Part shown: positions 17,783-50,362 of the stretch, piece after piece
Numbering within the stretch: position 1 is the first letter of the stretch
Layout: every line of letters begins with the position of its first letter
NCBI GenBank assembly: GCA_018826515.1
Contig: JAHKAM010000063.1
Span: 26,050 to 90,049, forward strand
Source: Alphaproteobacteria bacterium
GTDB lineage: Bacteria; Pseudomonadota; Alphaproteobacteria; Caulobacterales; Caulobacteraceae
DNA length: 64,000 nt
Direction: 5' to 3'
The notes under the pieces: model-generated
The model's database searches: none
Seen by the model: the letters and a program-made list of their open reading frames with translations, nothing else
Told to the model about the DNA's origin: nothing
Position numbers and translations under genes: made by a program

Positions 17783-20154
17783 AGGCTTCTCCTTTGCTCG
17801 TGGAAGGGGGCGCGCCACTGCGCATAGTCGTCGCCGACCTCGGCCCGCAGGCGGTCCAGAAGGGCGACCGTTCCAGCGCGGCCGGACAGCACGGCGAGGG
17901 CGTCGTCCATGCCGCCGAGGTCGAGTTCGACCACGACGCTGTCGTGGCCCTGCTTGACGAGGAAGCGGTGGGACTCCGGCGTCAGCTCCTCACGGACGAG
18001 GCGGAACTCTTCGCGGGTCAGGCCGAAGCCGTCGATGTAGTCCCGCGCCTGGCCATGGGCGTTCGGCAGGAAGATCTGGGTCGCGCACTGCTCGAGGATC
18101 GCGTGGGCGATCGGCGACCGCAGTGCATCGGCGGGCGACTGGGTGCCGAACACCATGAAGGCGTTCTGCTTGCGCCAGGTCTTCAGCCCGTCCTGGGCCA
18201 GGTCGGTGAAGGCGGAGTCGCCCAGAACCTTCCAGAATTCGTCGATGTCCAGAACCAGACGGCGGCCGTCCACCCGTTCGGCGATGCGATGGAAGAGATA
18301 GAGCATCGCTGGCGTGCGGACCTCGTCGTGGTCCAGAACCTGGGTGATGTCGAAGCCGGTGAACCGGGCGCCGAGGCTGAGCGCGTCCTCGTCATTGTCG
18401 AGCACCCAGCCGAGAGGCCCGCCCTTCTGCCAGCGTTCCAGGCGCGCGCCGATGCCCCCGGCGTCGGCCTGGCCCAGCAGGCTGCGCAGGGCCGCGACCG
18501 AGCGGCGTTCGCGCGGCAGGGCTTCGAGCGCGCTGACGCCGTCGTCGATGGCGCGCGCCTGTGCGACCGTCAGCGTCTCGTCCGGTCGGGCCACAAGGGT
18601 GCGGATCAGGCGCACGAGGAAGGCCCGGTTGGCGGCCGAGGGCGACAGCGCCTTGAAGGGGGCGAAGCCGGTCGGCTCTCCGTTGCGAAGCGCCAGATAG
18701 GTCCCGCCGCTGGCCCTGACGAAGATCTCCGCGCCTCGATCCTTGTCGATGAAGAGCTGCTGGGCGCCGAACCGCTCGAGTTGGGCGAGCATGAAGTTCT
18801 GGACGACTGTCTTGCCGGATCCCGAGGGGCCGCAGATGAAGGTGTGGCCCAGGTCGCCGACGTGGAAGTTGAAGTGGAAGGGTGAGCCGGCCGTGGTGCG
18901 CAGCACCGCAACGGCCGGCCCCCAGTGATTGCCCTCGGCCTTGCCGACCGGGTGGGCGTGAAGAGGCGCAAGCGCCGCGAAATTGCGCGAGGTGATCGCG
19001 GCCGGCCGGGTGCGTCTGGAGAAGACGCCGGGGAACTGGGACCAGAAGGCCGCTTCCAGCCCGAGATCCTCCCGCGCGACGACGAGGCCGGAATCGGCGA
19101 GCACCGCGCGGGCCTTGGACAGATGGTCCGCGAGGGCCGACGGCGTCTCGCCGTGGATCAGGACGGAGGCCTGATGCTCGCCCATGACGAACCGATTGCT
19201 GGTCAACTCGTCCAGGGCGTCTGACAGGCCCTCGATCTGCGATCCGGCGCGATCGCGCGCCGAGACCATCTGGTTCTGCTTGCGCTCCATCACCGCGCGG
19301 GCAGCGGCTTTCGACAGGAAGGCGAAGGACTGCGACATGACGAAGCCGAACCGGGCGTTCAGCAGGGCGTCCCAGAGACCCGGCCGTGTCGTCGCCGGAT
19401 ACTCCTTGATAGCCAGCACCCCGCCAAACCGCTCCCCGGCCGCGTCGCGCAGCTCCAGGATCTCGCGGCCGAAGATCGTGCGGACGGTGTAGATCGCCGC
19501 TCCGAGGTGGCCGTGGACGAGCGGCGCGGCGAACCGGCGCCCGGTCAGGATCAGACCCATGACCTCCAGAGGCTCGGAGAACCAAAGTCCGCTCTTCTCG
19601 TAGAGGCCCAGGGACCGCGGCGTATAGCGATCGAGGTACTGCGCCAGGTCGCGCCCGGCCTCCTCGAGACGCCTCACCTGGGCCGTCATGACCTCGCCGT
19701 CGTCCCGGCGAGCCTGACGCAGGCGCCGCATCATGGCCGCGGCGCGATCCGCGCCGTCGCGTCCCGGATGCAGGACCAGGGTCACGAACAGCTCGTTGAC
19801 CCAGAGCCGGCGGCTGGCCATCCGAGCGTCATAGGCCTCGGCAAGACCGGCAGCGAAGGCCGAGGCATGGCCCGTCGACGGCGAAGGTTCGACCTCGCGG
19901 CGGACGACGTGGTGCCAGACCGCCAGCCGGTCGTCAGCGAGATTCCGCCACGCCTGGTTGAGCTTGACGTGCCAGTCGTTCAGGTCGAGCGCATCAGCGG
20001 TCTCGAAACTGGCGCCGGCGACCTGGAACACCATCATCAGGGCGCCGCTGTCCAGCGCGACCACATGGTCGTTCACATGGCGCGCATAGGGGAGCTGGGC
20101 CCGGAACTCGGTCTCCCGGCGCAGGCGGGACGATGGCGCGCCGCCGTCACCCAC
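17779..20154 (-). CDS. virB4: VirB4 ATPase
   Basis: FICGPSGSGKTV Walker A and RLVLDIDEFW Walker B. The GTG at 20154 is preceded by GGAGG. The N-terminal 78 codons of the track ORF overlap virB3 and are rejected. Confidence 0.9.
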   Translation of the reverse strand: MGDGGAPSSRLRRETEFRAQLPYARHVNDHVVALDSGALMMVFQVAGASFETADALDLNDWHVKLNQAWRNLADDRLAVWHHVVRREVEPSPSTGHASAFAAGLAEAYDARMASRRLWVNELFVTLVLHPGRDGADRAAAMMRRLRQARRDDGEVMTAQVRRLEEAGRDLAQYLDRYTPRSLGLYEKSGLWFSEPLEVMGLILTGRRFAAPLVHGHLGAAIYTVRTIFGREILELRDAAGERFGGVLAIKEYPATTRPGLWDALLNARFGFVMSQSFAFLSKAAARAVMERKQNQMVSARDRAGSQIEGLSDALDELTSNRFVMGEHQASVLIHGETPSALADHLSKARAVLADSGLVVAREDLGLEAAFWSQFPGVFSRRTRPAAITSRNFAALAPLHAHPVGKAEGNHWGPAVAVLRTTAGSPFHFNFHVGDLGHTFICGPSGSGKTVVQNFMLAQLERFGAQQLFIDKDRGAEIFVRASGGTYLALRNGEPTGFAPFKALSPSAANRAFLVRLIRTLVARPDETLTVAQARAIDDGVSALEALPRERRSVAALRSLLGQADAGGIGARLERWQKGGPLGWVLDNDEDALSLGARFTGFDITQVLDHDEVRTPAMLYLFHRIAERVDGRRLVLDIDEFWKVLGDSAFTDLAQDGLKTWRKQNAFMVFGTQSPADALRSPIAHAILEQCATQIFLPNAHGQARDYIDGFGLTREEFRLVREELTPESHRFLVKQGHDSVVVELDLGGMDDALAVLSGRAGTVALLDRLRAEVGDDYAQWRAPFHEQRRSL

Positions 20155-20482
20155 GGAGAACCTCCACCGGCCGGTAGCGGCGGACGAGCGGGAGGGGAGA
20201 CACCGAACTGCCGCCCCACAGGGCGCCGTTCCGGCACCGGCCCTTGGTGTCCACATAGAGGAACAGGAGGCGGAAGGCGTTGTGGTCCGCCCGGCAGATC
20301 GCCCGGAACACCAGGTGCAGGGCCGGCGCCACGAGCAGATAGAGGAGGCTGCCGCCGACGAGGAAGACGACCCCCGACAGGATGACATTGACCCCCATGG
20401 CCTCCATCGGCACGCCCATCACCATCGCGGGACGGGTGCAGGCCAGGAACAACGGGTCCTCGGTGAGACGTTCCTCAGCCAT
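20147..20482 (-). CDS. virB3: VirB3
   Basis: DPLFLACTRPAMVMGVP, then a TM helix. Length is 111 aa. Position is upstream of virB4. Confidence 0.8.
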   Translation of the reverse strand: MAEERLTEDPLFLACTRPAMVMGVPMEAMGVNVILSGVVFLVGGSLLYLLVAPALHLVFRAICRADHNAFRLLFLYVDTKGRCRNGALWGGSSVSPLPLVRRYRPVEVLRG

Positions 20483-20657
20483 GGGCGCCGCCCTCCATCA
20501 TCCAGGATCCGGCGACCACCAGGGCGATCCCGCAGGCGCCCCCGGCGACGCTCTGGGCGAACCGTTTGGGCGAGAGGAGGCCGAGCCCGAGCGCCAGGCA
20601 CAGGGCCAGGAAGGCCGAGGTCGCCCCGATCGTCAGAAGTAGGCCGGGCGAGGGCAT
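20475..20657 (-). CDS. Small two-TM membrane protein (60 aa) between virB2 and virB3
   Basis: MPSPGLLLTIGATSAFLALCLALGLGLL...GGACGIALVVAGSWMM. It forms an ATGA overlap with the virB2 stop and overlaps the virB3 start. No homology was recognised. Confidence 0.4.
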   Translation of the reverse strand: MPSPGLLLTIGATSAFLALCLALGLGLLSPKRFAQSVAGGACGIALVVAGSWMMEGGAHG

Positions 20658-20980
20658 CAGGCGCCGCCCGTGATCAGATTGACGATCTCCGCCGCGCCGA
20701 AGACCACGACGATGCCGAGGACGACGATCGCCGCGCGTCGCAGATCGAACAGGCCGAACATCCAGAGGATGCCGACGACGACGACCGCGAGGACGGCCAG
20801 CAAACGGGCGGTATTGCCCGTCAGCATGTCGACCACATTCTGGAGGAGGCCCTCGACATTGGCCGAGGCCATGGCCGGCTGAGCGGACAGGGCGGTGGCG
20901 GCCAGGGCGATGGCCAGGGTCGCCGCCAGAGTGTGGGAAGGGCGGCGCGCGGACGCGATCGGGCTCATCGGGATCACCAT
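20657..20980 (-). CDS. virB2: VirB2/TrbC pilin
   Basis: Long signal peptide ending in AMA, then NVEGLLQNVVDMLTGNTARLLAVLAVVVVG and a second TM helix. This is the pilin architecture. Confidence 0.75.
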   Translation of the reverse strand: MVIPMSPIASARRPSHTLAATLAIALAATALSAQPAMASANVEGLLQNVVDMLTGNTARLLAVLAVVVVGILWMFGLFDLRRAAIVVLGIVVVFGAAEIVNLITGGA

Positions 20981-21600
20981 TCGGCTGAGGTTGAGAAGAC
21001 GACGACGCCGGCCCGCGCCCGGCCGAAGACATCCCAGGGCGGCGCGGGCGGGGACACCGGCTCCGGCGAGGCCGCGACGGCGGTTGTTTCGAGAGGGGGA
21101 GCGACGTCCCGGAGGATCGGCGGCGCCATCAGGCTCAGCCGGACAGCCGCGGCCTCCACCCGCCCGACATAGCCGTTGTCGAAACCCCGCCGGGCGTCGC
21201 CGGTGTTGTAGCGGGACAGGGCGACCCGCAGGGCCGACTGGCGGTCGGACGGCGTACTCCCGGAAACCCGGTATCCGGCCTTCAGCACGGTCGCCGCCGC
21301 CGCCAGATTGCGGCAGGGGTCGAAGGCGTCCTCGACCGACAGGTCCAGCCAGTCGAGATTGCTGCTGTTGATCTGGGCGAGCCCGAGATCGATGTTGGCG
21401 CCGCGCGCCAGAAGCGACCGGGCGGTCCGCGCCGCTTCCCGGGCGTCCCGGGATCGCACGGGCGCCGGGCCGCCGCGATTGACGCCGATCGCCAACGGAT
21501 CGAACCGGCTTTCGACATGGGCGATCGCCGCGAGCGTCTCGGGCGCGACCGACGGGGCGCAAGCCTGCGACAAGGCGAGGACGGCGGCGAGTTCGAGCAT
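20974..21600 (-). CDS. virB1: VirB1 lytic transglycosylase
   Basis: AAIAHVESRFDPLAIGVN carries the SLT catalytic Glu motif. Confidence 0.85.
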   Translation of the reverse strand: MLELAAVLALSQACAPSVAPETLAAIAHVESRFDPLAIGVNRGGPAPVRSRDAREAARTARSLLARGANIDLGLAQINSSNLDWLDLSVEDAFDPCRNLAAAATVLKAGYRVSGSTPSDRQSALRVALSRYNTGDARRGFDNGYVGRVEAAAVRLSLMAPPILRDVAPPLETTAVAASPEPVSPPAPPWDVFGRARAGVVVFSTSAEW

Positions 21601-21676
21601 GGAGCCTCCAGCGAGAAGGCTTCACCTCAGCAGGAGCGGTGGTTCGCGGACCACCCGCGAGATTCCCGTGGGAGAT

Positions 21677-21940
21677 TTACGGTAGGAAGGAGCGCGGTTC
21701 CTCGAGGGCGCGCGTGACCTTGGCGAGTTGCGCCACGGCCTGGATCCGGGTGCGCACGCCGAGGACCTCGCAGGCCGCCGCCAGATGCTCGTCCACCGTG
21801 CGGGGAGAGATCCCGATCTGCTCGGCGATGCCTGGGGAGGAGAGGCCCGTGGCGGCCAGCCGCAGACAGGCGATCTGCCGGTCGGACAGGTCGTCGATCG
21901 ACGACGCGGATGCGCCCGGCGATGTCGGGACGAGGGACAT
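21677..21940 (-). CDS. LuxR/GerE-type HTH protein (DNA-binding domain only, 87 aa)
   Basis: LSDRQIACLRLAATGLSSPGIAEQIGISPRTVDEHL. Confidence 0.75.
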   Translation of the reverse strand: MSLVPTSPGASASSIDDLSDRQIACLRLAATGLSSPGIAEQIGISPRTVDEHLAAACEVLGVRTRIQAVAQLAKVTRALEEPRSFLP

Positions 21941-21990
21941 GCCTCATGAAGCCGCGCCTTCGCGTCGCTGGGAAGCCCGTGAGACTGGCG

Positions 21991-22004
21991 CCGTAGATCT
22001 ACGG
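21991..22004. promoter_or_regulatory. Perfect 14-bp palindrome CCGTAGATCTACGG upstream of the luxR-type gene
   Basis: Read directly. It shares CCGTAG-N2-CTACGG half-sites with the 18-bp palindrome at 6301-6318. Confidence 0.35.
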
Positions 22005-22030
22005 TCGGTCGTTGCGCTCCGGTGGCGAAG

Positions 22031-22513
22031 TCAGGTCCCTTCGTCCCGGATTGGCCGCATCAAACGGGTGCGTCGCTCCTCGAGCCAGGCATCGGCCTCG
22101 GCGTCACGGTGAACCGACTGGACGGCCAGATCTCTCAGGGTCTTGGTGAAGGTGTTGATCAGGGTCCGGGCGTCGAGGTCGTTGATCGCATCGCCGGCTT
22201 CCTCGTCGAACTCCTGGAGCACCACGACCAGAATGGTCGCAAGTTTGTTGTCGGCGCACCGCAAGGCGAAGTCGGGAGAGCCCAGGGCGAGGGCGGCGAT
22301 AATGCCGTGGGGGTCACTGTCCGTGACTTCGGCGAACCGGTGGATCCGCTCGATGTTGATCCGGCCCGCGCCGGACTCGAAATGCTCGTAGGATCGCAGG
22401 GCCATGTTCATTCCCTGGGCCACATCGATCGTGCGCATACGCCTGTGCGTGCGGATCAGGCGCAGGCTGGTGGAGAGGACGGCGTTCGGCGTCAGGGGGT
22501 GCTGGGAGTCCAT
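22031..22513 (-). CDS. XRE-family HTH regulator
   Basis: LRLIRTHRRMRTIDVAQGMNMALRSYEHFESG is an HTH_3-like segment. Confidence 0.7.
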   Translation of the reverse strand: MDSQHPLTPNAVLSTSLRLIRTHRRMRTIDVAQGMNMALRSYEHFESGAGRINIERIHRFAEVTDSDPHGIIAALALGSPDFALRCADNKLATILVVVLQEFDEEAGDAINDLDARTLINTFTKTLRDLAVQSVHRDAEADAWLEERRTRLMRPIRDEGT

Positions 22514-22753
22514 CTGTCAGTCTATGCCCCCGCCATCCACATCACGCGATCAAAACCTCCGCACCCCTACAGGTTGAAAAATGCCTCAGCCATGCGTCAA
22601 ATGAAACCCTAGAAATATCAACGACGTAAAAGCTGCGGACATGACGCAAGTTTATTGCGGAACCCATCATAGGCGCCACTCACCCGCGCAGGCGACCCTC
22701 TTGCGGGCGGTCGTCCATCTACGGGGCGTTCCTCCCCATCAGGTGCGATCCGA

Positions 22754-23320
22754 TTGAGACAGCGCGATCCCTTCGGCATGGCCATGGCAAGCCTGCGAAC
22801 AGCCCTCGAGGAGGGTCTTGCGCCGGGCCAGCATCTGTCTGTCGCGGACATCGCGGCCTCGCTCAAGCTGAGCACCAGCCCCGTCCGGGAGGCGCTCTCC
22901 CGGCTCTGTGGCGAGGGACTGATCGAGGATCGCAGGGGGCTCGGATACTTCACCCGCGCCGCACCGTTTGAGGACATCATCGGTCTGCTGGATCTCGAGG
23001 CGGCCCATGTGCGCCTCGCGGCGCGAGACGGCTTGGTTCCGGGACCCCACGATGCGGCCAACGCGGTTGTCGATCTCTGGATCCTGGAGGTGGTCGCCCG
23101 CTGCGAGAACCAGCCGCTCGTTGAAAGCCTCGTGAGGGTCAGACGTCGCTTGGGGCCCCTGCGCCGGCTGGGCGAGGCGCTGCTGGATGAGGACACGCCG
23201 CAGTCGGATGATCGGCTCGACGCCTACTATGCCCGGTGGCGGGTCGCGGCGGGTCGGCTCGCCGCCCATGTCCGACGCCTCGACCCAGACCTCTCCGAAT
23301 ACACGCGCAATATTGTTTGA
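22754..23320 (+). CDS. GntR-family regulator with an FCD-like C-terminal domain (the start may be at 22778 or 22784)
   Basis: LSVADIAASLKLSTSPVREALSRLCGEGLIEDRRGLGYF. Confidence 0.75.
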   Translation: MRQRDPFGMAMASLRTALEEGLAPGQHLSVADIAASLKLSTSPVREALSRLCGEGLIEDRRGLGYFTRAAPFEDIIGLLDLEAAHVRLAARDGLVPGPHDAANAVVDLWILEVVARCENQPLVESLVRVRRRLGPLRRLGEALLDEDTPQSDDRLDAYYARWRVAAGRLAAHVRRLDPDLSEYTRNIV

Positions 23321-23352
23321 ATCGATTTGCGATAGGGCGCTGATGGTGCGTC

Positions 23353-23373
23353 GTCGACCTTCTGTCGACCTTC
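23353..23373 (+). repeat. Tandem direct repeat GTCGACCTTC-t-GTCGACCTTC just upstream of the precursor-gene RBS (candidate GntR operator)
   Basis: Read directly. Each unit contains the palindrome GTCGAC (a GT..AC core). The repeat period is 11 bp. Confidence 0.45.
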
Positions 23374-23390
23374 AGAAAGAGGAGACGACC

Positions 23391-23519
23391 ATGACCACCA
23401 AGAGCATCTCGCGCCTCGTTCGCCTGGGCGCCGCTCGCCAGCTCACCCGCGCCAACTCGCGCGGCGAATTCGACGAGCTGAATCCCGTGCTGAAGTACAC
23501 GATTCCGCCGACCGAATGA
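23391..23519 (+). CDS. Lasso peptide precursor A1 (42 aa)
   Basis: MTTKSISRLVRLGAARQLTR|ANSRGEFDELNPVLKYTIPPTE. An AGAGGAGA RBS precedes the gene. Thr sits at -2 of the predicted cleavage site and Glu9 is the ring acceptor. B and C genes follow downstream. Confidence 0.75.
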   Translation: MTTKSISRLVRLGAARQLTRANSRGEFDELNPVLKYTIPPTE

Positions 23520-23525
23520 GCGGAC

Positions 23526-23554
23526 GGGCCGCTTCGGCGGCCCGGACGTCCGGG
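23526..23554 (+). other. Two GC-rich hairpins downstream of precursor A1
   Basis: GGGCCGC-ttcg-GCGGCCC at 23526-23543 and a 14-bp palindrome CCCGGACGTCCGGG at 23541-23554. Confidence 0.5.
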
Positions 23555-23611
23555 CTGGGCCTCGCCCCGGACCCCGCGATCAGAGGCGTTTTTCGTGAAG
23601 GAGATGGATCA

Positions 23612-23737
23612 ATGAAGATCCGGACCGACGCGCCGATCCTGCGACTGGGGGCCGCTCGCCGGCTGACCCGGGCCATCGCGATGGGGCCGTTCACCGAACT
23701 GAATCCGGCCCGGCACTGGACCATGCCGCCCGAATGA
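23612..23737 (+). CDS. Lasso peptide precursor A2 (41 aa)
   Basis: MKIRTDAPILRLGAARRLTR|AIAMGPFTELNPARHWTMPPE. It has a GAAGGAGA RBS. The leader core LRLGAAR(Q/R)LTRA is shared with A1. Confidence 0.75.
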   Translation: MKIRTDAPILRLGAARRLTRAIAMGPFTELNPARHWTMPPE

Positions 23738-23744
23738 TCCCGAA

Positions 23745-23767
23745 GGGGTCGCCCTCCCGGCGACCCC
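23745..23767 (+). other. Stable hairpin between precursor A2 and the B gene (candidate attenuator or mRNA stabiliser)
   Basis: Perfect 9-bp stem GGGGTCGCC / GGCGACCCC with a 5-nt loop. There is no clear U-tract. Confidence 0.5.
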
Positions 23768-23816
23768 CGACGGCCCCCGCTTTGGGTGGGCCCTTGTCGA
23801 CCTGTGGAGTCGCCTT

Positions 23817-24527
23817 ATGCCGCCTCGCGTCCCTTTCGACCGACGGGCCCCCGCCATGGGGGTCTCCGCGTCTGGGCATCGTCTCGATGGTGGGGAGCGA
23901 CAGGGCGCTTCCCTGGCCGAGGGGCTTTACGCCGTGCAGATCGGAGGCGACCTCGTCCTCCTCGACCTCAACGCAGACGACTATCTCTGCCTCCCGGAGT
24001 GCGGGGACATCGCTGTCGCCGGCCGCAGTGTCGCCGGTCCGATGGACGCGCTTCTGCGCCTTGCAGCGGAAGAGCTCCTGCATCCCAACCAGGTCGAGGA
24101 CGAACGACCGGATGCGCCGACGCTCCCGTCCACCCGCCTTCCGGCGCCGCCGCGGATCAGGCCCGGCCTTCGCGACATCCTGGTCTTTGCCCGCATATGG
24201 GCCGAATGCGCAGGGCGCCGGTCGACACTGCTTGAGCTGAAGCGACGCCACACCGGCCGCCGCGGGCGCCGGGACGACCCTTCCGCGCTCGCCTCCAGGG
24301 TCGAGGTGTTCCGCCAACTCTTGCCCTTCGCACCAGTGACCGGGGCCTGCCTGTTGCAGGCCGAGATGCTCCTCCGCTTTCTCAATGCGGACGGCCTCGA
24401 CGCCGACTGGGTATTCGGCGTGAGGACGTTCCCCTTCCTCGCCCACTGCTGGATCCAGTGTGGAGATCAATGCGTCAGCGAGGCGCCGGAGACCCTGACC
24501 GTCTATCGCCCGATCATGGTGATCTGA
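23817..24527 (+). CDS. Lasso peptide maturation protein B (fused PqqD-like RRE B1 plus transglutaminase-like cysteine protease B2)
   Basis: LYAVQIGGDLVLLDLNADDYLCL is the RRE-like part. VTGACLLQAEMLLRFL and FGVRTFPFLAHCWIQCGD carry the Cys/His protease motifs. Confidence 0.85.
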   Translation: MPPRVPFDRRAPAMGVSASGHRLDGGERQGASLAEGLYAVQIGGDLVLLDLNADDYLCLPECGDIAVAGRSVAGPMDALLRLAAEELLHPNQVEDERPDAPTLPSTRLPAPPRIRPGLRDILVFARIWAECAGRRSTLLELKRRHTGRRGRRDDPSALASRVEVFRQLLPFAPVTGACLLQAEMLLRFLNADGLDADWVFGVRTFPFLAHCWIQCGDQCVSEAPETLTVYRPIMVI

Positions 24528-24528
24528 C

Positions 24529-26244
24529 ATGGCCGCGGATTCAGCCATCATCCTCGTCGGCGACAATCCGGCCGCGCTCGAAGCGGCCATTGCGCCGATG
24601 CGAAAGCGCCTGAGCCGGCGAGGCTGGTCCCGGAAGGTCCAGGCGCCCTTTCTCGAGGCCTATGCGCCTTCCGCCGGGCGGCTCGACATCACCTGCGGTC
24701 TGGACGGCCATGGGATCCTGATCGGAGACCTCTACGACCGGGACGGAGGTCGGCTGGAAGGACGGGAACGAGGCGTCCTCGGTTGCCGTCCTCTCGACAG
24801 CGCGCGCGCCCGGGATGTGTGCTCGACCTACTGGGGTCGCTATCTCCTCGTCCGCCGGTTCTCGGGCGAGGTCGCCATCCTCCGCGATCCATCCGGCGGG
24901 ATCGATTGCGTGGTCTGGCGCCGGAACGGCGTGACCTTCATTGCGACCGGGGGCGGCGATCTCATAGATCCCTGGCTTCCGGATACGACGTCGATCGACT
25001 GGGGAGAGGTCGCCGCCCTGGTGCGTCGCCCCGGTGAGCACCGGCATCGCCTGCCCCTGACCGGATTGACGCCCGTCGCGGCCGGCGAGCTGCGCAGCAT
25101 CGGGGATGGAACCCACCGTAGCGAACAAATCTGGACCCCGGCCGAAGTCTACAGGCGTCGCGACCCGGCCGCGCCGCCTGACCTCAGGGCATCCGTGGTC
25201 CTGGGCGTCACCGCGCTGGCCGGAACCCGGAAGTGGATCGCGGAGCTCAGCGGCGGGCTCGATTCCGCCATCGTGGCGGCCGCCCTGACCACGGATCAGC
25301 GCGGCCGGGTCGCAGCTTGGGTCAATCACTATGTCGATCACAGGGAAGGCGATGAGCGGGACTACGCGCTGGCGGTGGCTCGGCGTCACGGGGTGACCCT
25401 GACCGAGGTGCGTCGGGTGGGATTGCGTCTCGGAGCCCGGCGGCTCGAGGTGGCCGCGGACGGATTTCGGCCGGCGTCCAATGATATCGACCCCGACTAC
25501 AATGACGACATCGCCGAGCGCATCGAGACACTCGATGCCTGGGGCTCACTGACAGGGCAGGGCGGCGACGCCGTCTTCTTCCAGATGCCGACACTGCTGA
25601 TCGGCCTGGACGAGATCTGGGAGCGCCGGTTCGGGGCGAGAGTCGAGGTCCTGCATCGCCTGTCCCGCTGGTTGCGCCGCCCTCTCTGGCCGACCGCCCT
25701 GGCCAGGGACTGGCGCGAGGAAATCCGTCACCGTTCGTCCTGGACGCACCCGTGGCTCGAGGATCTCCGGGGCGTGCCGCCCGCCAAGGCCATGCAAATC
25801 TCGGCGCTGTCCTTCTGCCAGACCTTCCAGGGGCCGTCGGTGCGCAGCCGCCGCGGGCCCTGCATCAACCCCCTGCTCAGTCAGCCGGTCATGGAGGCTG
25901 GTCTCGCCCGATCTTCCGTCGATCTGACCTGGGGCGGTCGCGACCGCGCGGCGGCACGGGCAGCGTTCGCCGACACGGTGCCGTCGGTCGTCCTCGATCG
26001 TCGGTCCAAGGGCGAACTCGGCGCCTACTATGGTCGAGCCGTGGCCGAGCATCTTCCCTTCCTCAGAGACTACCTCCTCGGCGGCGCGTTGGCGGAGGCC
26101 GGGTTGATCGACCCCTCGCTGGATGCCCGCCTGACCCGTGAACACCTGCTCTGGCGAGGCGGCCATTCGGAACTGCTCAGTCTGGCGCAGACGGAAGCGT
26201 GGGTACGGCGGTGGCGTGATCGGCTGGCGGCTCGAGCGGCCTGA
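24529..26244 (+). CDS. Lasso peptide cyclase C (asparagine synthetase-like)
   Basis: ELSGGLDSAIVAAAL PP-loop. Length is 571 aa. It starts 1 nt after the B stop. Confidence 0.85.
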   Translation: MAADSAIILVGDNPAALEAAIAPMRKRLSRRGWSRKVQAPFLEAYAPSAGRLDITCGLDGHGILIGDLYDRDGGRLEGRERGVLGCRPLDSARARDVCSTYWGRYLLVRRFSGEVAILRDPSGGIDCVVWRRNGVTFIATGGGDLIDPWLPDTTSIDWGEVAALVRRPGEHRHRLPLTGLTPVAAGELRSIGDGTHRSEQIWTPAEVYRRRDPAAPPDLRASVVLGVTALAGTRKWIAELSGGLDSAIVAAALTTDQRGRVAAWVNHYVDHREGDERDYALAVARRHGVTLTEVRRVGLRLGARRLEVAADGFRPASNDIDPDYNDDIAERIETLDAWGSLTGQGGDAVFFQMPTLLIGLDEIWERRFGARVEVLHRLSRWLRRPLWPTALARDWREEIRHRSSWTHPWLEDLRGVPPAKAMQISALSFCQTFQGPSVRSRRGPCINPLLSQPVMEAGLARSSVDLTWGGRDRAAARAAFADTVPSVVLDRRSKGELGAYYGRAVAEHLPFLRDYLLGGALAEAGLIDPSLDARLTREHLLWRGGHSELLSLAQTEAWVRRWRDRLAARAA

Positions 26245-28555
26245 GATACCGGTCGAACCATTGCCGGACCTGTCGGTAATAGAGCCGGATATTGCCGGGG
26301 CTCCGAAGGCCGTGTTCCTCGCCGATCAGGAGCGTCAGGGCGACGGGGCGTCCCAGGCGGTGAAGCGCGCCATAGAGCTGTTCCGATTGGCCGAGCATGA
26401 GGTCGTATTCCCCGGCGACGAGAAGGGTCGGCGTGTGAATCCGATCCGCCTGGTCGAAGGGACTGTTGCGGCGATAGCGGTCGGCCGCGCTCCAGTAGGA
26501 CGTCCGCATGGCGGCCTGGCCGGACTCGAGCCAACGCGCGCTGGCCGCAGCAGCAAGCGGATGTCCGCCCTCCAGCCTGAGCGTTGAGCCGACGTCGCCA
26601 ATGACCGTCGAGAAATTCATCGGTCCGTTCAAGGCGACCACGGCGTCGAAGCGGTCCGACTGGGCGGCGCCCATGACCGCCGACCAGGCGCCGAAGCTCC
26701 AGCCCCACACACCGATCCGTTCCACATCGATCAGCCCTTCGGCGCCCGCAGCATCGACGACCGCAAGGATGCGGCCGGCCAGTCCATCAGCGGGCTCGCG
26801 CGTCGGCGGAAGGTCCGGAATGAGGATGGCGTAGCCGTCCGCCACCAGCAACTGAGGGGCCATGGAAAGGCTCGTGGATTCCCGTCGCATCCACCAGGGC
26901 GGCGCGTCATAGGCGTCCCCCTGATAGGGCACGACGATGACCGGTGGTTTCGAGGACAGGTCGCGCGGCAGATAGAGCCACCCGCCGACGCCGCCCGGAC
27001 CTGAAACCCGGCGAGGCGCGGCCACCTCGATCCGGTCCAGCTCGGGGTTGAGACGCCGGATCACGGTTCGCCCTTGTTCGTCCTGCCGTCGCAGCACGTC
27101 CGGCTCGTCCTCCTGTGTACTTCGATCGAGGCTCACCCCACGGCTCCAGCTGACCGCAGCCCCGGGCGCGGCGACAGCACATGCTGTGTCGAGCGTCGGG
27201 TCGGCATAGACCCGGCAAAGCCTCCCGTCGGATTGGGACAGGGTCGCGAAGCGCCGCTTCATCGGGCCGTTCATGGCCCGCAGGCCAAACGGTCCGCCAG
27301 GGTCGACTGAACTTCCAGCCGCTCCGAGAACGGTCATACCGCCATCGGGATCGAGTCGAACGAGGTCCCTGGCGCGGTTGAAGAGAACACCGGAAGGGTG
27401 TTCGGCCACGAGCCGGGCGTTTGGTCCGAGCCCTGAAATGGGCCGGACTCCGCCATCGGCGCGGAACCAGCCTTCACCGAGTTCAGTGCGGCCTTTGACT
27501 AACGGCGTGTCATCGAGCCAGCCGCCCTCGGCGGTCGGCATGCCCTGGAAGTCGATCGCGGCAACGGGCGTGACGCCGGGCGGGGTTTCATCCCGCACCT
27601 CGCCGGAAGGCGTCACGGTCAGAAGCCGCGTGCGGTCGCCGACGATGGCGACCACCAGGAGCGCGTCCGACCGGGGCGACCAGGCGAGAAGGCTGGTGGA
27701 GATGTCGCCGGTTCCAGGGGGAGACACGAGCCGGCGATCCTCCAGCGAGACGATCTGCAAACCTCGAGCGCGCCTTACCTCCGTCGACGCATCGGCGGCC
27801 GGAGGCGGCAGGAGCGGGCCATCGAGGAGGAGCGCGACATGGCGGCCATCCGGCGAGACTTCGAAGTCCAGGAAGGGGCCGTCGGCGATCGGGGAGGCGC
27901 GCCCGGTCGTGGCCGTGATCCGCCAGAGGCGGCGAGGAGCCAGGGTGTCCTTTGCGTCGGAGCCCACCATGACGGCCGCAGCGGCCCCCTCCATCGCCGC
28001 CGCCCTCAGCGCCAGCAGGCGGGCTTGCTCCGTGCGAGGACCCGCCAGTCGTGCGGGGAGTGAACCGTCAGCTGTCCCCAGCACGATCAGGCTGTCGTTC
28101 CCCACCCATTCGACCGACCGGCCCCAAAGCCCCAGGTCCGGTGCGACCTCCGTCCATATCACCTGTCCCGTGGCCAGCACGACGACACCCAGACGCCAGG
28201 CGTCGTCCTGAAGGCAGAAGACGACCATTCGACTACCGTCGGGCGAGAAGGGGCCCGCCGTGTAGCCGGCGTTCTCCGCCATCGGCAGAAGCGGCCGCGG
28301 CGAGGCGGCTTCGTCGAGGTCCAGACGATACAGTCTGGCATACCGATTGGCGCCCTCTGCCTCCACGTCATGCCGAGGGAGATCGATCCGGCTGAGGCGT
28401 TCCTCGAAGACAGCCACCGCCCCGGACGGATCGATCGCCACGCGGCCGTAGCTCTCCAGACCCAGGACGACCTCAACCGTGAGGGGGTCGGCCCGCACGA
28501 CGGAAGGGCAGGCGAGCGCAAGGGCGCTCGCCATCAGAACCAAACCTCTGCGCAT
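26177..28555 (-). CDS. S9 prolyl-oligopeptidase-family serine peptidase, predicted lasso peptide isopeptidase (AtxE-type)
   Basis: N-terminal beta-propeller-like region. C-terminal GVWGWSFGAWS nucleophile elbow, then AGEYDLM (Asp) and GEEHGL (His). The gene context matches known isopeptidase-type lasso clusters. Confidence 0.8.
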   Translation of the reverse strand: MRRGLVLMASALALACPSVVRADPLTVEVVLGLESYGRVAIDPSGAVAVFEERLSRIDLPRHDVEAEGANRYARLYRLDLDEAASPRPLLPMAENAGYTAGPFSPDGSRMVVFCLQDDAWRLGVVVLATGQVIWTEVAPDLGLWGRSVEWVGNDSLIVLGTADGSLPARLAGPRTEQARLLALRAAAMEGAAAAVMVGSDAKDTLAPRRLWRITATTGRASPIADGPFLDFEVSPDGRHVALLLDGPLLPPPAADASTEVRRARGLQIVSLEDRRLVSPPGTGDISTSLLAWSPRSDALLVVAIVGDRTRLLTVTPSGEVRDETPPGVTPVAAIDFQGMPTAEGGWLDDTPLVKGRTELGEGWFRADGGVRPISGLGPNARLVAEHPSGVLFNRARDLVRLDPDGGMTVLGAAGSSVDPGGPFGLRAMNGPMKRRFATLSQSDGRLCRVYADPTLDTACAVAAPGAAVSWSRGVSLDRSTQEDEPDVLRRQDEQGRTVIRRLNPELDRIEVAAPRRVSGPGGVGGWLYLPRDLSSKPPVIVVPYQGDAYDAPPWWMRRESTSLSMAPQLLVADGYAILIPDLPPTREPADGLAGRILAVVDAAGAEGLIDVERIGVWGWSFGAWSAVMGAAQSDRFDAVVALNGPMNFSTVIGDVGSTLRLEGGHPLAAAASARWLESGQAAMRTSYWSAADRYRRNSPFDQADRIHTPTLLVAGEYDLMLGQSEQLYGALHRLGRPVALTLLIGEEHGLRSPGNIRLYYRQVRQWFDRYLRPLEPPADHATAVPTLPSAPD

Positions 28556-28561
28556 GTATGC

Positions 28562-31516
28562 TCACCAGCGCTTGACGAGCTGGAGGGAGACCTGACGCCC
28601 AAGGACGTTGGTGTTGGCGGCGTCGTAGCCGATGCCCGCCGGAGCGTCGTAGAAGGGCGGTTCCTCATTGAGAAGATTGAGCACATTCAGGGTGAGCGAC
28701 AGGCCCTTGGCCCACCCGGACTCCAGATCCACGCGCGCCTGACCGTCCAGGGTGATCCAGTCATCGATCGCCCGGCCGCTGGCTGCGTCTCGTCCGCCGC
28801 TGACGTGATTGATGGCGCCCCCGATGGTGAGAGGGCCCAGCATCCATTGCGCGCCGACCCGGCCGCGCCAGCGCGCGGGGAAGTTGGGGCTCCCGAGCAG
28901 ATCTTCCGTCGGCGAGGCCGGCGTTATCGTTCGGTCGTTCGTGAGAAGGTGGGTAACGGTCGCGTCGAGGGCCAGGTCGCCGGACCCCAGGGTGAAGCGA
29001 TAGCGCGTCGACAGATCCAGTCCCTGCACCTCCACCGCCGAGGCGTTGACGTACCGGTTGTCGATCACCGCGCCATAGGCCGTCGCGGGGAAGACGCGCG
29101 GGTTGAAGTTGCCGGGGTGGTCGAGGAGCGACTGCACATAGGCGAGATCGACCGCACTGGTGCGAGGGGCGACGTAGCGGATGAAGGGCGCAAGCGTCGG
29201 ATCGTTCAGGGCGTCGATCAGGTTCTCCGCGACCGGGGTCGCGATCCGGTCCTCGAAGGTGGTGCGGAACCAGCCGCCTTCGATCCGCAACCCTTCAACC
29301 GCGTTCGGCGTCCAGACAAACCCGGCGGTCCAGGATTCGGCGGTCTCCGGGGACAGATCAGGATTGCCGCCGTACTGGACGATGCTGATCACATTGGAGC
29401 CCGCGCGGTCGAGGAAAACCGGACCCAGACGATAGGCGCTGTTCAGCTCGCGCAACGAGGGCGCCCTGAAGGAGGTCCCGAAACTCGTGCGAAAGAGCAG
29501 GTCCGAGGTCGGCTTGTAGAGCAGTCCGACTTTCGGGTTGGTCGTCTGACCGACGCCTTCGTGGTCCTCGATCCGCCCGGCGAGCGACACCTCCAGCCGC
29601 TCGAGGCCGGGGCGGGCGTTGTCCGGCCCCGCGATCGGAATACGAAGCTCGGCGAAGGCGGCGGTGACATCACGCTCGAACCGGGTCGGGGCCGCGATAC
29701 GGGGCGTCGCGCCGGAGATGAAATTTTCACCGGAGGTCTCGAACCGCTCGTGCCGGACATCGAGGCCGACGGCCATGCGAAGGTCGCCGCCGGGCAGGTT
29801 CAGCAGGACGCCGTCCGCCTTCAGGTTCAGCGAGCCCACCGTGCTGATGTTCTCCGACCGAATGTAGCCGGACCCGATGAAGGCCAGCAGCGCCGCGCTG
29901 TGAGAGGCGGGATCGCCGTAGGGGTTGAAGAAGCCGTCGACCGAGGTGCGGAAAGCGGTCGACGGACTGTCGGGCGTCGCGCCGATGGCTTCGTCGAGCC
30001 GGGACGTCTGGACGCGGTTCGTCGCCATCAGCCCCGTCGTCTCACGCCCGCCGCTGATGTAGGCGGCGGTGTTCCAGCCCAGCAGGGTCCCGCTGATTCC
30101 CAGGGCCCCGCCCACGCTCCGTGAGAACCCCTCGTCCCGACCAGGCCCGAGGTCGTTGATGAAGGAGTAGGCGATTTCCTGGAACGGTTCACCGGCGACA
30201 GGGGTGAAGTAAGGGTTGTCGGGAGTGACGAACAGGATGCCGATATCAGCCATCGTGTCCTGATCGTACCGCCGGTCCGTGTAGCGGATGTCGCCGTCCA
30301 GACTGAAACCACCCGGGAGATCCTGACGTCCCGCCAGAAAGACGCTGTGCCGCCTCTGATGCGGGAGGCTCCACTGTCCTTCCATCTGATTGGTCAGATT
30401 GACCGCCCTTGGCCGGAAGTCACCCGGCGTGAGGTTCAGCCCGTTCTGCCCGGGGCGAATGGCATGGGTCGGTTCATATGAACCGCTGACAGGGTCGAAC
30501 GCCATCAGATTGCCGGGCGCGCTGTAGAAGAAGCGGCGGTCGGACCCGCCAAGCGCCCGAAGGTCGGCATCGGCCGTCGCCCGGCGATCCGCCGCCCGGA
30601 GTTCTCCCCGGTCGTGAAATTCATAGGCGGCGACGATTCCGCCGCTCGACCAGTCGAAGCCGCCGCTGTGCGACAGCAGGACTTCCTCGGCGCCGCCGTC
30701 GCTCGTCCCTCCGACGCGGAGGCGGGTTTCGGCCCCTTCGAAACGAGACTTCAGAATGACATTGACGACCCCGCCCACCGCGTCCGCGCCGTACAGGGCC
30801 GAGGCGCCGTCGAGAAGCACGTCCGTTCGTGCAACAGCGCTGGTGGGAATGTTGGAGATGTCTGAGAAATCGCCGGCGCTGCCCGTGCCCGCGATCCGAC
30901 GACCATTGACCAGGACTAGGGTGGCGTCCGCGCCGAGACCCCTCAGGTTCACCCCGGTCGCATAGGCGAGGTTGCGGCTCGTGCGGTCGGCCCCAGTCCC
31001 GGCCGACCCCTCATAGGCCGCGCCTGTGAAATTCTGGGGGAGGGCGGCGAGCGTCTCGGCGACCGTGCCCCGTCCCTGCCGATCGATGTCAGCCTGGGTG
31101 ACGACGGTGACGGGGGAGGGGCTGTCGGCGCCGCGCAGATAGGTCCCGGTCACCACGACTTCCTCCAGCTCCGTGGCCGTATCCGGCTCGAGCTCGGCCC
31201 GCGCGGAAGGGTCGAACAGAACGAAGACAGTAGGCCGGCTTTGGCGGTACGAGAGACCGGTGTCGCGCAGGATGATCTGAAGGGCGGCTTCCGGTGCGTG
31301 ATCGCCGCTCAGGCCGGTCGACTGGCGGCCGGCGACCAGAGCGCTGGGATAGAGGATCTGGAGACCGCTCTGCCGGCCGAAGGCGGGCAGGGTGCGCTCC
31401 AGCGGTCCCGCAGCGATGTCAAAGCGGCGGACGCTGTCCGACGACTGCGCGATCACTGGCGTCGCGACTGCCATCATCAGCGCGGCGAACGCGGTTGAAG
31501 TGTATCCGTGGCCCAT
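28562..31516 (-). CDS. TonB-dependent transducer (FecA-like) with an N-terminal STN signalling domain
   Basis: RRFDIAAGPLERTLPAFGRQSGLQILY is the STN domain. EEVVVTGTY marks the plug. The C-terminus ends in LQLVKRW. Length is 984 aa. Confidence 0.9.
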   Translation of the reverse strand: MGHGYTSTAFAALMMAVATPVIAQSSDSVRRFDIAAGPLERTLPAFGRQSGLQILYPSALVAGRQSTGLSGDHAPEAALQIILRDTGLSYRQSRPTVFVLFDPSARAELEPDTATELEEVVVTGTYLRGADSPSPVTVVTQADIDRQGRGTVAETLAALPQNFTGAAYEGSAGTGADRTSRNLAYATGVNLRGLGADATLVLVNGRRIAGTGSAGDFSDISNIPTSAVARTDVLLDGASALYGADAVGGVVNVILKSRFEGAETRLRVGGTSDGGAEEVLLSHSGGFDWSSGGIVAAYEFHDRGELRAADRRATADADLRALGGSDRRFFYSAPGNLMAFDPVSGSYEPTHAIRPGQNGLNLTPGDFRPRAVNLTNQMEGQWSLPHQRRHSVFLAGRQDLPGGFSLDGDIRYTDRRYDQDTMADIGILFVTPDNPYFTPVAGEPFQEIAYSFINDLGPGRDEGFSRSVGGALGISGTLLGWNTAAYISGGRETTGLMATNRVQTSRLDEAIGATPDSPSTAFRTSVDGFFNPYGDPASHSAALLAFIGSGYIRSENISTVGSLNLKADGVLLNLPGGDLRMAVGLDVRHERFETSGENFISGATPRIAAPTRFERDVTAAFAELRIPIAGPDNARPGLERLEVSLAGRIEDHEGVGQTTNPKVGLLYKPTSDLLFRTSFGTSFRAPSLRELNSAYRLGPVFLDRAGSNVISIVQYGGNPDLSPETAESWTAGFVWTPNAVEGLRIEGGWFRTTFEDRIATPVAENLIDALNDPTLAPFIRYVAPRTSAVDLAYVQSLLDHPGNFNPRVFPATAYGAVIDNRYVNASAVEVQGLDLSTRYRFTLGSGDLALDATVTHLLTNDRTITPASPTEDLLGSPNFPARWRGRVGAQWMLGPLTIGGAINHVSGGRDAASGRAIDDWITLDGQARVDLESGWAKGLSLTLNVLNLLNEEPPFYDAPAGIGYDAANTNVLGRQVSLQLVKRW

Positions 31517-31608: not shown

Positions 31609-32583
31609 TCAGGCGCCGCGGCTGAGCACGATGCGACCGTCTTCCGTCCGGGCGGCCTGAAGCGGATAGAGGTCCGTCAGGGCGGCGACGAAGCCGTCGA
31701 TGTCGCCCGCGTTAAAGACCCCGCTGACCCGGATTTCGGACACGCGGGCGTCCTGCAACTCGATCGGCTCGCGGCTGTAGCGATTGACCTCCGCCACCGC
31801 CACCGAGACCGGGGTGTTCTCGAACGTCAACCGTCCGACCGTCCAGCTCGTCGCCGCCGCGACGTCTGTGGTCATCACCTGGGGCTGGCGGGCGGAGGTG
31901 ACGACCTGCTGCCCCGGCGTCAGGGACCACTGAGCCGGTCGGTCCATGTCGTGCCGGACGGCGACCCGCCCGTCGACCAGAATGACGCGAGCGCCCGCGC
32001 CGGAGCGCCGGACGTCGAAGCGGGTGCCCAGAGCCGTCACCCTTGTGTCCCCGGCCGCCACCACGAAGGGGCGCGCCGCGTCGCCCTCGACATCGAACAT
32101 GGCCTGGCCCGAGGTGAGGGTGACGGCGCGGCGGTCACGCGTGTAGCGCACCGCCACCCGGGTGTTGGTGTCCAGAGTGATGCGCGAGCCGTCGTGCAGC
32201 TGCACCGTCCTCTGCTCCCCGACGGCCGTGGCATAAGTAGCGGGCCGCTGCTGGAGCCAGGCGAGACTGAAAGCGCACACGGCCACGGCCGCCGCACCGG
32301 CGACGCCCAGAGAGACCAGACGGCCCGAGGGCCTGCGCTTCTCTCGGGCTTCAGTCCCGCGCCTGGCCTCGGCCGTCAGGGCCGCCAGCTCGGGGTTGCC
32401 GGCCAGCGCGCCCGCGGCGTCCCACATGGCCTCGATCTTCTGGAAGGCGTGCGCATTGGCGGGATCGCGGCGCCAGGCGCTGAAACCGCGCACGTCCGCC
32501 GTCGTGACCTTGCGCTGATTGAGCCGAGTGAACCACTCGACGGCTTCCTTGCGCCTGATGTCGGCCTCCGCCTCGATCGTCAT
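31609..32583 (-). CDS. FecR-family anti-sigma factor / sensor
   Basis: EAVEWFTRLN...FSAWRRDPANAHAF N-terminus, one TM helix, and a FecR domain (VQLHDGSRITLDTNTRV). Confidence 0.85.
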   Translation of the reverse strand: MTIEAEADIRRKEAVEWFTRLNQRKVTTADVRGFSAWRRDPANAHAFQKIEAMWDAAGALAGNPELAALTAEARRGTEAREKRRPSGRLVSLGVAGAAAVAVCAFSLAWLQQRPATYATAVGEQRTVQLHDGSRITLDTNTRVAVRYTRDRRAVTLTSGQAMFDVEGDAARPFVVAAGDTRVTALGTRFDVRRSGAGARVILVDGRVAVRHDMDRPAQWSLTPGQQVVTSARQPQVMTTDVAAATSWTVGRLTFENTPVSVAVAEVNRYSREPIELQDARVSEIRVSGVFNAGDIDGFVAALTDLYPLQAARTEDGRIVLSRGA

Positions 32584-32592
32584 CCGTCTTGC

Positions 32593-33135
32593 CTAAAGGT
32601 CCAGCCGAGACGCGCAATACTCGAGCGCCCGGGCCATCCGCCACTTCACGGTCTGCTCGCTGATCTCGAGGGTCCGGGCAATCTCCGGGTAAGTCATACC
32701 GCCAAAGCGACTGAGAACGAAGACTTTGCGGTAAAGGGGCGGCATATCGCGGATCGTCTCCGTCAGCAGCGCGGCGTCGAACTGCACGGCCGCTTCGCTG
32801 ACAGGCGGGGGCGCCGCCACCTGATGACGTCGCTGCAGGGCGTCCTGCCTGTGCGAGTCAGTCAGGAGGTTCAAGGCGATCCGGAGCAAGAAGGCCTTGG
32901 GGTGCCGGATGTCGGCCAGGGCGTAGGGCGCGGCGCGGATATAGGTCTCCTGAACCACGTCCGCGGCCGCATCCGCGCCGATCCGACCGCGCAGACGCCG
33001 TCCCAGCCAGGGTGCGTACTGACGGTAAAGACGGCCAAGACCATCCTGTCCCTCCGCGCCCAGCTGCTTCGTGTCTGTCACCACGCCTCTCCGACCTCTT
33101 CCAAAAAGGTCCGGAATCCGGGCGAGACGGCGCAC
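32593..33135 (-). CDS. ECF sigma factor (FecI-like)
   Basis: AADVVQETYIRAA is region 2. YRKVFVLSRFGGMTYPEIARTLEISEQTVKWRM is region 4. Confidence 0.85.
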   Translation of the reverse strand: MRRLARIPDLFGRGRRGVVTDTKQLGAEGQDGLGRLYRQYAPWLGRRLRGRIGADAAADVVQETYIRAAPYALADIRHPKAFLLRIALNLLTDSHRQDALQRRHQVAAPPPVSEAAVQFDAALLTETIRDMPPLYRKVFVLSRFGGMTYPEIARTLEISEQTVKWRMARALEYCASRLDL

Positions 33136-49471: not shown

Positions 49472-49499
49472 CCCTCAAATCCCAGAAAAGGAGACTTCC

Positions 49500-49940
49500 A
49501 TGAAACGGTCCGGATGGGTCGGCGTGATTGCGCTGTTTCTTCTCATATCGGCCTTCGGCTTCGGGATGCTGTCCCGCCAGAACGCGACCCGACCTCAGGC
49601 GGGCACGCCCGTCGATGCGCGTCCGATCGACGCCCATGCGGGTCATGCCGACGCCGCGGCGGACAGTCCGGCCACCCGCTCCTTCAAGGAGGCCAACGAG
49701 CGCATGCACCTGGCCATGGAGATCGACTACAGCGGCGACGCCGATGTCGACTTCATGCGCGGGATGATCGCCCACCATGAGGGAGCGGTCGCGATGGCCC
49801 GGATCGCCCTGGAGCACGGGAAGGACGCCGAGGTTCGCGGGCTCGCCGAAGAGGTGATCCGCACCCAGGAAGCAGAGATCGTCCGCATGCGTGTGTGGCT
49901 CGCCAACCGCGCCGGGCGTCCCGTCGAGCCGGCGGTCTAG
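49500..49940 (+). CDS. DUF305 protein (periplasmic, metal-resistance associated)
   Basis: [23 protein letters not shown]...[10 protein letters not shown]. Confidence 0.8.
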
Positions 49941-49943
49941 ATC

Positions 49944-50360: not shown

Positions 50361-50362
50361 CG

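Follow-up and report, generated by a model that had tools for sequence, protein, structure and literature searches.

The closest described systems are caulonodins VI and VII, reportedly from Caulobacter sp. K31 and attributed to Zimmermann et al. 2014, Chem Sci 5:4032, caulosegnins II and III of Caulobacter segnis, the astexin-2/-3 cluster with its isopeptidase AtxE2, which is said to belong to Asticcacaulis excentricus and is attributed to Maksimov and Link 2013, and brevunsin, reportedly a product of Brevundimonas diminuta and attributed to Kodani et al. 2018. The 64,000-nucleotide stretch of contig JAHKAM010000063.1 analyzed here, referred to as the window, carries two small genes, A1 and A2, between positions 23391 and 23737. 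These are very probably tandem precursors of a class II, isopeptidase-type lasso cluster in a Brevundimonas genome, and by their core sequences the encoded peptides are uncharacterized relatives of caulonodins VI and VII. The precursors and the two adjoining biosynthetic enzymes are:

23391..23519, forward strand: precursor A1, 42 residues, made up of the 20-residue leader MTTKSISRLVRLGAARQLTR and the 22-residue core ANSRGEFDELNPVLKYTIPPTE
23612..23737, forward strand: precursor A2, 41 residues, made up of the 20-residue leader MKIRTDAPILRLGAARRLTR and the 21-residue core AIAMGPFTELNPARHWTMPPE
23817..24527, forward strand: fused lasso B protein, with an N-terminal leader-binding part and a transglutaminase-like Cys protease (PF13471, E=3.8e-18)
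24529..26244, forward strand: lasso C protein, an asparagine-synthetase-like, ATP-dependent macrolactam cyclase (PF00733, E=1.7e-16)

The full-length translations of A1 and A2 are MTTKSISRLVRLGAARQLTRANSRGEFDELNPVLKYTIPPTE and MKIRTDAPILRLGAARRLTRAIAMGPFTELNPARHWTMPPE, respectively. Each open reading frame (ORF) is preceded at a distance of 6–8 nucleotides (nt) by a Shine-Dalgarno sequence (AGGAG at 23380–23384 for A1, AAGGAG at 23598–23603 for A2), and both lie upstream of B, with their 3′ ends 298 nt (A1) and 80 nt (A2) from it. The arrangement is that of class II precursors, with genes directly upstream of B and C, a Thr at position −2 of the leader, and an acceptor residue at position 9 of the core. 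The first-pass annotation of this DNA had proposed two lasso precursors with these same cores, and the open frames, the B and C genes directly downstream, and the homologous leader register bear it out. It had also given a shared leader string LRLGAAR(Q/R)LTR; the Thr at −2 and the portion RLGAAR(Q/R)LTR are indeed common to both, as is the L-T-R|A junction, but the initial Leu is found only in A2 and is replaced by Val in A1. The two cores align without gaps and are identical at A1, G5, F7, E9, L10, N11, P12, T17, P19, and P20, exactly as had been listed.

The adjoining enzymes appear intact. B scores 66.6 bits against the NCBIfam lasso_biosyn_B2 model (NF033537, cutoff 33), and its residues C178 and H210 do not vary among 19 homologues. 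Its longest ORF comprises 236 residues; because most homologues have 218–221 residues, the true start may lie near Met14, at 23856. C carries the ATP-pyrophosphatase motif SGGLDS at residue 241 and scores 66.6 bits against the NCBIfam macrolactam cyclase model, which is below the 300-bit cutoff.

That A1 and A2 are chance open frames or degenerate remnants from which no peptide is made is exceedingly improbable. Such a view could draw on the NCBIfam models, none of which recognizes either precursor, and on the lack of a promoter consensus. It is opposed by the ribosome-binding sites and the intact B and C genes already described, and by the pattern of substitution. Compared with locus L001, one of the related loci described below, the A2 core shows 8.0 differences over 14.7 synonymous sites and 2.0 over 48.3 non-synonymous sites, and the A1 core 5.0 over 16.3 and 3.0 over 49.7, respectively; both genes are under purifying selection. 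At least 16 independent genome loci have the A1-A2 pair in an equivalent position. The exact A1 protein occurs in 132 blocks of a public collection, including assembly GCA_904423885.1, where the small precursor ORFs are usually both called by gene callers. A precursor profile retrieves 46 representative clusters at E≤0.001 from a library of 1.84 billion proteins, the inspected members of which all have the same leader/core layout, and every A1 homologue with a taxon name is from Brevundimonas. By these sequence criteria, A1 and A2 are genuine lasso-peptide precursors and not chance ORFs. A regular-expression scan of the window in all six frames yielded no other convincing precursor, an exact-sequence search of the literature with four core fragments matched no paper, and a search of the PDB with the core found no relative.

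The published cores of caulonodins VI and VII are AGTGVLLPETNQIKRYDPA and SGIGDVFPEPNMVRRWD (PMC12427821). An Ala1–Glu9 ring has been experimentally characterized in caulonodin VI, of which caulonodin VII is the Ser1 equivalent. As in the window, the two precursors stand in tandem in one cluster. The first core residue is Ala or Ser, the nine-membered ring is closed on Glu9, as is predicted for the window peptides from comparison of the cores, and a basic residue at position 15 precedes Tyr16 in one member of each pair and Trp16 in the other member. In contrast, ring residues 2–8 are unrelated, Gly5 and the E-L-N-P motif are specific to the window family, the window tails have 3–5 additional residues and terminate in PP(T)E, and the host genus differs. 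Caulonodin VI is printed in two ways, as ...PETNQIK... (PMC12427821) and as ...PENTQIK... (PMC12214591), and Asn11 was for this reason left out as evidence of homology.

Caulosegnins II and III resemble the window peptides in the leader register, (I/V)RLGxAxRLT(Q/R), the Glu9 ring, the His/Arg15-Tyr16 pair, and the type of cluster, and near-copies of them are encoded with the same synteny in locus L060. They differ in having Gly1, and the B and C proteins of L060 are 34% and 37% identical to those of the window, respectively. The astexin-2/-3 cluster likewise has two tandem precursors followed by a fused B and then C, no ABC exporter, a GntR gene upstream, and an S9 peptidase, a TonB-dependent receptor, and a sigma/anti-sigma pair downstream; the astexins, however, have Gly1 and a ring closed on Asp9. 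Brevunsin, with the sequence GDMGEEVIEGLVRDSLYPPAG (PMC12427821), shares with the window peptides the genus, the class II assignment, an available Glu9, and a Pro-Pro near the C-terminus. Because it has Gly1 and no E-L-N motif, it represents a different precursor family, and as a product of the window cluster it is ruled out by its different sequence.

Species-representative genomes were scanned with a profile of the B protein, and 80 loci were kept, all from Caulobacteraceae or unclassified metagenome-assembled genomes; the caulonodin cluster of Caulobacter sp. K31 is not among them. Nearly all of these loci are syntenic, in the order GntR, A(n), B, C, followed by a convergent S9 peptidase and TonB-dependent receptor, and most of them have, upstream of B, small ORFs whose leaders follow the pattern LG-x5-T-x. 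The 65 distinct predicted cores begin with Ala (33), Gly (20), Ser (7), Asp (3), or Thr (2), and most have a possible acceptor at position 9. Since Ala leads the first-residue counts and position 9 offers an acceptor in most cores, Ala1 with a nine-membered Glu9 ring is the commonest predicted design in this clade. The earlier opinion that a non-glycine first residue is rare, and the products therefore unusual, is thus not sustained: Ala1 outnumbers Gly1 among the predicted cores, and nine-membered Glu9 rings are normal in the clade. The A1 and A2 peptides would add two members to the small set of lassos with a non-glycine first residue. They leave the knowledge of lasso biosynthesis unchanged and are of modest practical use, in that a compact cluster provides easily expressed targets with clear predicted masses.

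Processing most likely occurs after Arg−1, that is, after L-T-R, in both precursors. The LG-x5-T-x register of the A1 and A2 leaders is that of the precursors in L060 (Caulobacter endophyticus), which encodes GTLSPGLPEDVLPGHYMPG and GALVGLLLEDTSVARYDPA after LIRLGxAHRLT(Q/R); these cores are near-copies of the characterized caulosegnins II and III (table in PMC12427821). A further locus, L043, encodes the caulonodin VII-like core SGGGVLFPEDFSPLRWM. Because the window leaders share the register of peptides of known structure, the predicted cleavage site is anchored to the latter, and this register is found also with the 65 predicted cores and in the caulosegnin-like precursors. A few predicted cores have Asp or Thr as the first residue after the T-x cut (L022, L026/27/30/36, L031, and L073, e.g., DGGGTLLPEMFAPDRYDCG and TGGGWMLLEDNFVLKYDPL); either these peptides have unusual first residues or the cut is made one residue later in those precursors.

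The ring acceptor can be assigned by comparison within the closer core family, which comprises approximately 25 distinct cores from L001–L017, L020, and proteins P0001–P0013. Glu9 and Gly5 are invariant in this family, Leu10-Asn11 is almost invariant, and position 1 is Ala except in L013, where it is Ser. Two other ring positions vary freely, position 8 being D/E/I/V/A/T/N and position 6 E/D/T/P/H/L, and Glu9 is the sole acidic residue at positions 7–9 in most of these cores, as it is in A2. A start at the internal Gly5 would leave no Asp or Glu at positions 7–9 in either window core, and its exclusion by the first-pass annotation is upheld. Third precursors in L011 and L015–17 are also instructive (GADGEFVELQ..., GKGGEFVELQ...; GADGEFVELQTTQRFDLPFE, GKGGEFVELQVT). 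They begin with Gly1, are one residue shorter, and retain the same aligned Glu, and their ORFs end 12 nt before B or overlap it (L011, L015, L016, L017). The predicted product is a Gly1–Glu8 ring, which would be formed beside two Ala1–Glu9 peptides in each cluster. Because Glu9 never changes, positions 6 and 8 vary, and the shorter Gly1 precursors keep the aligned Glu, the conserved Glu is taken to be the acceptor, and Ala1–Glu9 is most likely the correct ring assignment for both window peptides, as had been proposed.

A closure of peptide 1 on Asp8, giving an eight-membered Ala1–Asp8 ring beside an Ala1–Glu9 ring in peptide 2, has to be considered, as Asp8 adjoins Glu9 in A1 and makes an eight-membered ring chemically possible. 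Moreover, L011 and L015–17 mix acceptors at positions 9 and 8, so one enzyme set can serve two ring sizes and does not by itself fix the ring; the premise that one cyclase implies one ring size fails on these loci, where Glu9 and Glu8 precursors stand side by side. The caulosegnin cluster, too, reportedly makes eight- and nine-membered rings. Nonetheless, closure on Asp8 is very unlikely, given that position 8 of the homologues changes freely whereas Glu9 is constant, and that in the eight-membered cases the N-terminus is shortened with the aligned Glu unchanged. Lasso cyclases also usually refuse an Asp/Glu swap, as reportedly shown by mutagenesis of MccJ25, capistruin, and caulosegnin I. The argument first offered for the Ala1–Glu9 ring, namely that no other processing is consistent, is weaker than that from Glu9 conservation, although the ring it arrived at stands.

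Position 16 is Tyr in A1-type cores (Phe in L020) and Trp in A2-type cores, with a basic or polar residue at 15. In caulonodin VI, the upper plug is residue 15, immediately before Tyr16 (PMC12214591, Table 1). By analogy, Lys15 and Tyr16 would flank the ring in peptide 1, as would His15 and Trp16 in peptide 2, in line with the prior suggestion of a bulky Tyr or Trp plug at position 16. The basic-15/aromatic-16 pair, which is conserved in the family, agrees with caulonodin VI.

The precursor and enzyme genes are embedded in a larger set, which runs in the order GntR, A1, A2, B, C, and then, convergently, S9 peptidase, TonB-dependent receptor, FecR, and extracytoplasmic function (ECF) sigma factor:

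22754..23320, forward strand: GntR-family transcriptional regulator preceding A1 (Pfam GntR PF00392, E=2.1e-10)
26177..28555, reverse strand: secreted S9 serine peptidase with beta-propeller and alpha/beta hydrolase parts, candidate lasso isopeptidase (PF00326)
28562..31516, reverse strand: TonB-dependent receptor of the transducer type, with an N-terminal STN signaling domain (PF00593, PF07715, PF07660)
31609..32583, reverse strand: FecR-type anti-sigma factor/signal transducer (PF04773, PF16220)
32593..33135, reverse strand: ECF (FecI-type) sigma factor (passes TIGR02937 sigma70-ECF with 53.6 bits, cutoff 42.9)

The FecR gene is below threshold for the NCBIfam FecR model (122.3 bits against 385, E=2.3e-35), as is the sigma factor for the FecI-specific model (66.5 bits against 260, E=2.7e-18). 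All lasso clusters with an isopeptidase have been described as having a nearly invariable layout of genes, in which GntR precedes the precursor and a TonB transporter and sigma/anti-sigma genes follow the isopeptidase (PMC9266682), and the same architecture is reported in PMC11006600 and PMC5067487. By gene order and domain content, the window cluster conforms to this canonical isopeptidase-type arrangement.

These features suggest the following scheme for the two peptides. The N-terminal part of the fused B protein would bind the conserved leader through the L−12, G−8, T−2 register (RLGxARxLT-R), and its Cys-His protease part would cleave after Arg−1. The ATP-dependent C protein would then activate the Glu9 side chain and couple it to the free Ala1 amine, closing the ring about the pre-threaded tail. 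The expected products are two lassos with a nine-residue ring, a six-residue loop, and a tail of six or seven residues; peptide 1 would be held by Lys15/Tyr16, with a calculated monoisotopic mass of 2471.233, and peptide 2 by His15/Trp16, with a calculated monoisotopic mass of 2347.124. The corresponding [M+2H]2+ values are 1236.624 for peptide 1 and 1174.569 for peptide 2, and the linear forms would have masses of 2489.244 and 2365.135, respectively. Uptake probably occurs via the adjacent STN-domain TonB-dependent receptor, whose signal would be relayed by FecR and the ECF sigma factor, and the secreted S9 peptidase probably linearizes the lassos, as proposed for astexin-type clusters.

Several findings weigh against this scheme. 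Besides Asp8 of A1 and the service of acceptors at 8 or 9 by the single enzyme sets of related clusters, no sigma-70 promoter consensus was found in 22600–24000, and the cluster contains no exporter gene (no ABC exporter). The S9 peptidase also departs from AtxE2. Unlike the isopeptidase of the astexin-2/-3 cluster, this protein of approximately 790 residues scores 49.8 bits against the NCBIfam AtxE2 equivalog NF033523, for which the cutoff is 400, and the match covers only residues 596–772, in the C-terminal domain. Searched against the PDB, the family profile finds first a generic S9 carboxypeptidase (8wt1, E=7e-35) and second AtxE2 (5txc, E=1.2e-20), and the Foldseek top 50 for the S9 peptidase contain generic S9 peptidases only, with AtxE2 absent. 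Among 14 syntenic homologues, the best E-value for the AtxE2 model is 1.7e-26.

The precursors could thus be real while the S9 peptidase is a general periplasmic enzyme that degrades imported peptides, the cluster working without specific linearization. The low NCBIfam score, the generic S9 carboxypeptidases and acylaminoacyl peptidases among the best sequence and fold matches, and the label “prolyl oligopeptidase family” carried by homologues in public records would all fit a general role. We consider it unlikely, because the peptidase keeps strict synteny with lasso B and C in almost all of the 80 loci, caulosegnin-like clusters included; the caulosegnin cluster is itself counted among isopeptidase clusters (PMC5067487; PMC9266682). 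The rank of AtxE2 as second-best PDB match of the profile and the shared propeller-plus-hydrolase layout and Ser-Asp-His triad also argue for a dedicated enzyme. The protein has a signal-peptide-like N-terminus and a GWSFG motif, its Ser620, Asp718, and His748 are invariant in 26 homologues, and its AlphaFold2 model (predicted local distance difference test score, pLDDT, of 88.9) is a confident two-domain S9 fold. Its gene is convergent with C and overlaps it at the 3′ end by 68 nt. Since AtxE2 resembles the peptidase no more than generic S9 carboxypeptidases do, the isopeptidase role of this protein rests on synteny, and it is best described as a candidate isopeptidase of a separate subfamily of approximately 790–800 residues.

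Membership of this protein in the AtxE2 family was considered and set aside, as NCBIfam, PDB sequence, PDB profile, and Foldseek comparisons revealed the generic S9 fold and no further likeness. In Brevundimonas, Caulobacter, and Phenylobacterium, the S9 peptidases linked to lasso clusters (approximately 790–820 residues) form a family outside the NCBIfam AtxE2 equivalog and are labeled in public records solely as prolyl oligopeptidase-family proteins. Also of practical use are the cognate S9 peptidase, whose subfamily escapes the AtxE2 model, and the well-sampled natural series of approximately 25 core variants, which could help to define the tolerance of B, C, and the isopeptidase.

Three non-coding elements accompany the precursor genes:

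23321..23390, forward strand: conserved non-coding region 5′ of A1, a probable promoter/operator or 5′ untranslated region (UTR) element
23525..23544, forward strand: GC-rich hairpin after A1, with an 8-base-pair (bp) stem and a UUCG loop, 6 nt past the stop codon
23745..23767, forward strand: GC-rich hairpin after the A2 stop codon, with a 9-bp stem (z = −2.6 against shuffles for the A2-B spacer)

Across 14 loci, the 70-nt spacer between GntR and A1 hardly varies, while the coding genes on either side are only 50–85% identical. It contains a tandem direct repeat, GTCGACCTTC, at 23353–23362 and 23364–23373; the copies are 11 nt, or one helical turn, apart, and each includes the palindrome GTCGAC. 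The repeat could be a GntR operator or part of a 5′ UTR hairpin. In 15 loci, each A1 and A2 gene is followed within approximately 5–12 nt by a stem of 8–13 bp, the sequence of which differs from locus to locus, and the hairpin is thus conserved as a structure and not as a sequence. The Gly1-type third precursors that abut B do not have it. No U tract follows either window hairpin, a scan of 22600–24000 found no intrinsic terminator near the precursor genes, and the whole window is without a match in Rfam. The hairpins may act in attenuation or in stabilizing the mRNA and probably shift the transcript balance in favor of precursor over enzyme, a role that fits the increased yields of related peptides obtained when the A-B intergenic region was swapped for a ribosome-binding site (PMC7549694).

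Upstream of GntR, within 17779–22600, lie virB-type type IV secretion genes:

17779–20388, reverse strand: VirB4
within 20657–21625, reverse strand: TrbC pilin and SLT lytic transglycosylase, listed as one ORF of 322 residues that corresponds to two genes in L081–L086

A small GerE/LuxR-type gene and a 160-residue unknown come after TrbC/SLT. This virB neighborhood is kept in many Brevundimonas loci whose lasso clusters fall into three or more very different types. VirB4 is 75–87% and TrbC approximately 50–65% identical in many of these loci, but some of their B proteins are only 33–40% identical to that of the window. Because the upstream genes are similar and the B proteins so divergent, a fixed chromosomal site carries very different lasso clusters. 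The window itself is a mosaic when compared over 20600–29000. Up to approximately 23400, it is nearest to L008, with 80–90% DNA identity; beginning with the A1 core, its nearest relatives are L001–L006, and identity to L008 falls to 55–60%. The A1 leader is separated from that of L008 by a single synonymous change, whereas 22.7 of the 49.7 non-synonymous sites in the core are changed. Such a pattern suggests that recombination took place near the A1 start. A tRNA scan for island borders found none.

From this context, a broader reading may be drawn, which we hold to be doubtful: that the lassos are secreted ligands of a cell-surface signaling loop and not antibiotics. They would be re-imported by the STN-domain TonB-dependent transducer, sensed via FecR and the ECF sigma factor, and switched off by the periplasmic S9 peptidase, and the module of cores, enzymes, peptidase, and receptor would be swapped by recombination, with a breakpoint near the A1 start, at the fixed site next to the virB genes. 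If true, Brevundimonas strains would acquire private, strain-specific peptide/receptor pairs, in a manner resembling kin or strain discrimination.

Some related loci contain, approximately 100–300 nt upstream of B, single ORFs of 72–80 residues with two complete leader-core units in series (L025, L029, L035, L039, L047, L056, L058, L061, L067–L069, L075, L078, and L080; proteins P0194, P0196, P0198, P0199, P0201, P0202, P0204, P0208, P0211, P0224, and P0225). An example is P0211, which reads MKTATTPRLIGLGSARIATR|ADATEGDMEQIPVRLYESAG-VRVDLVRLGSAEQATR|ADSTTGDFEQIPVRLWQQG. The first unit is of the Tyr16 type and the second of the Trp16 type, which is the order of A1 and A2 in the window. From their layout, these ORFs resemble A1-A2 fusions and would be two-core lasso precursors, of which a crude literature search found no description. 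The side observations in related loci, and these ORFs above all, are more unusual than the precursor pair of the window itself.

Elsewhere in the window, the region 46967–59222 was inspected for its composition. The 460-residue ORF at 53457–54839 (reverse strand) is without a match in Pfam. The anomaly at 52–56 kilobases (kb) was rejected as a special feature, since the strong AT-skew swings at 50–56 kb are explained by ordinary genes for membrane proteins lying on opposite strands, namely a P-type ATPase, two acyltransferase-3 proteins, an MFS transporter, and an AcrB-type RND pump.

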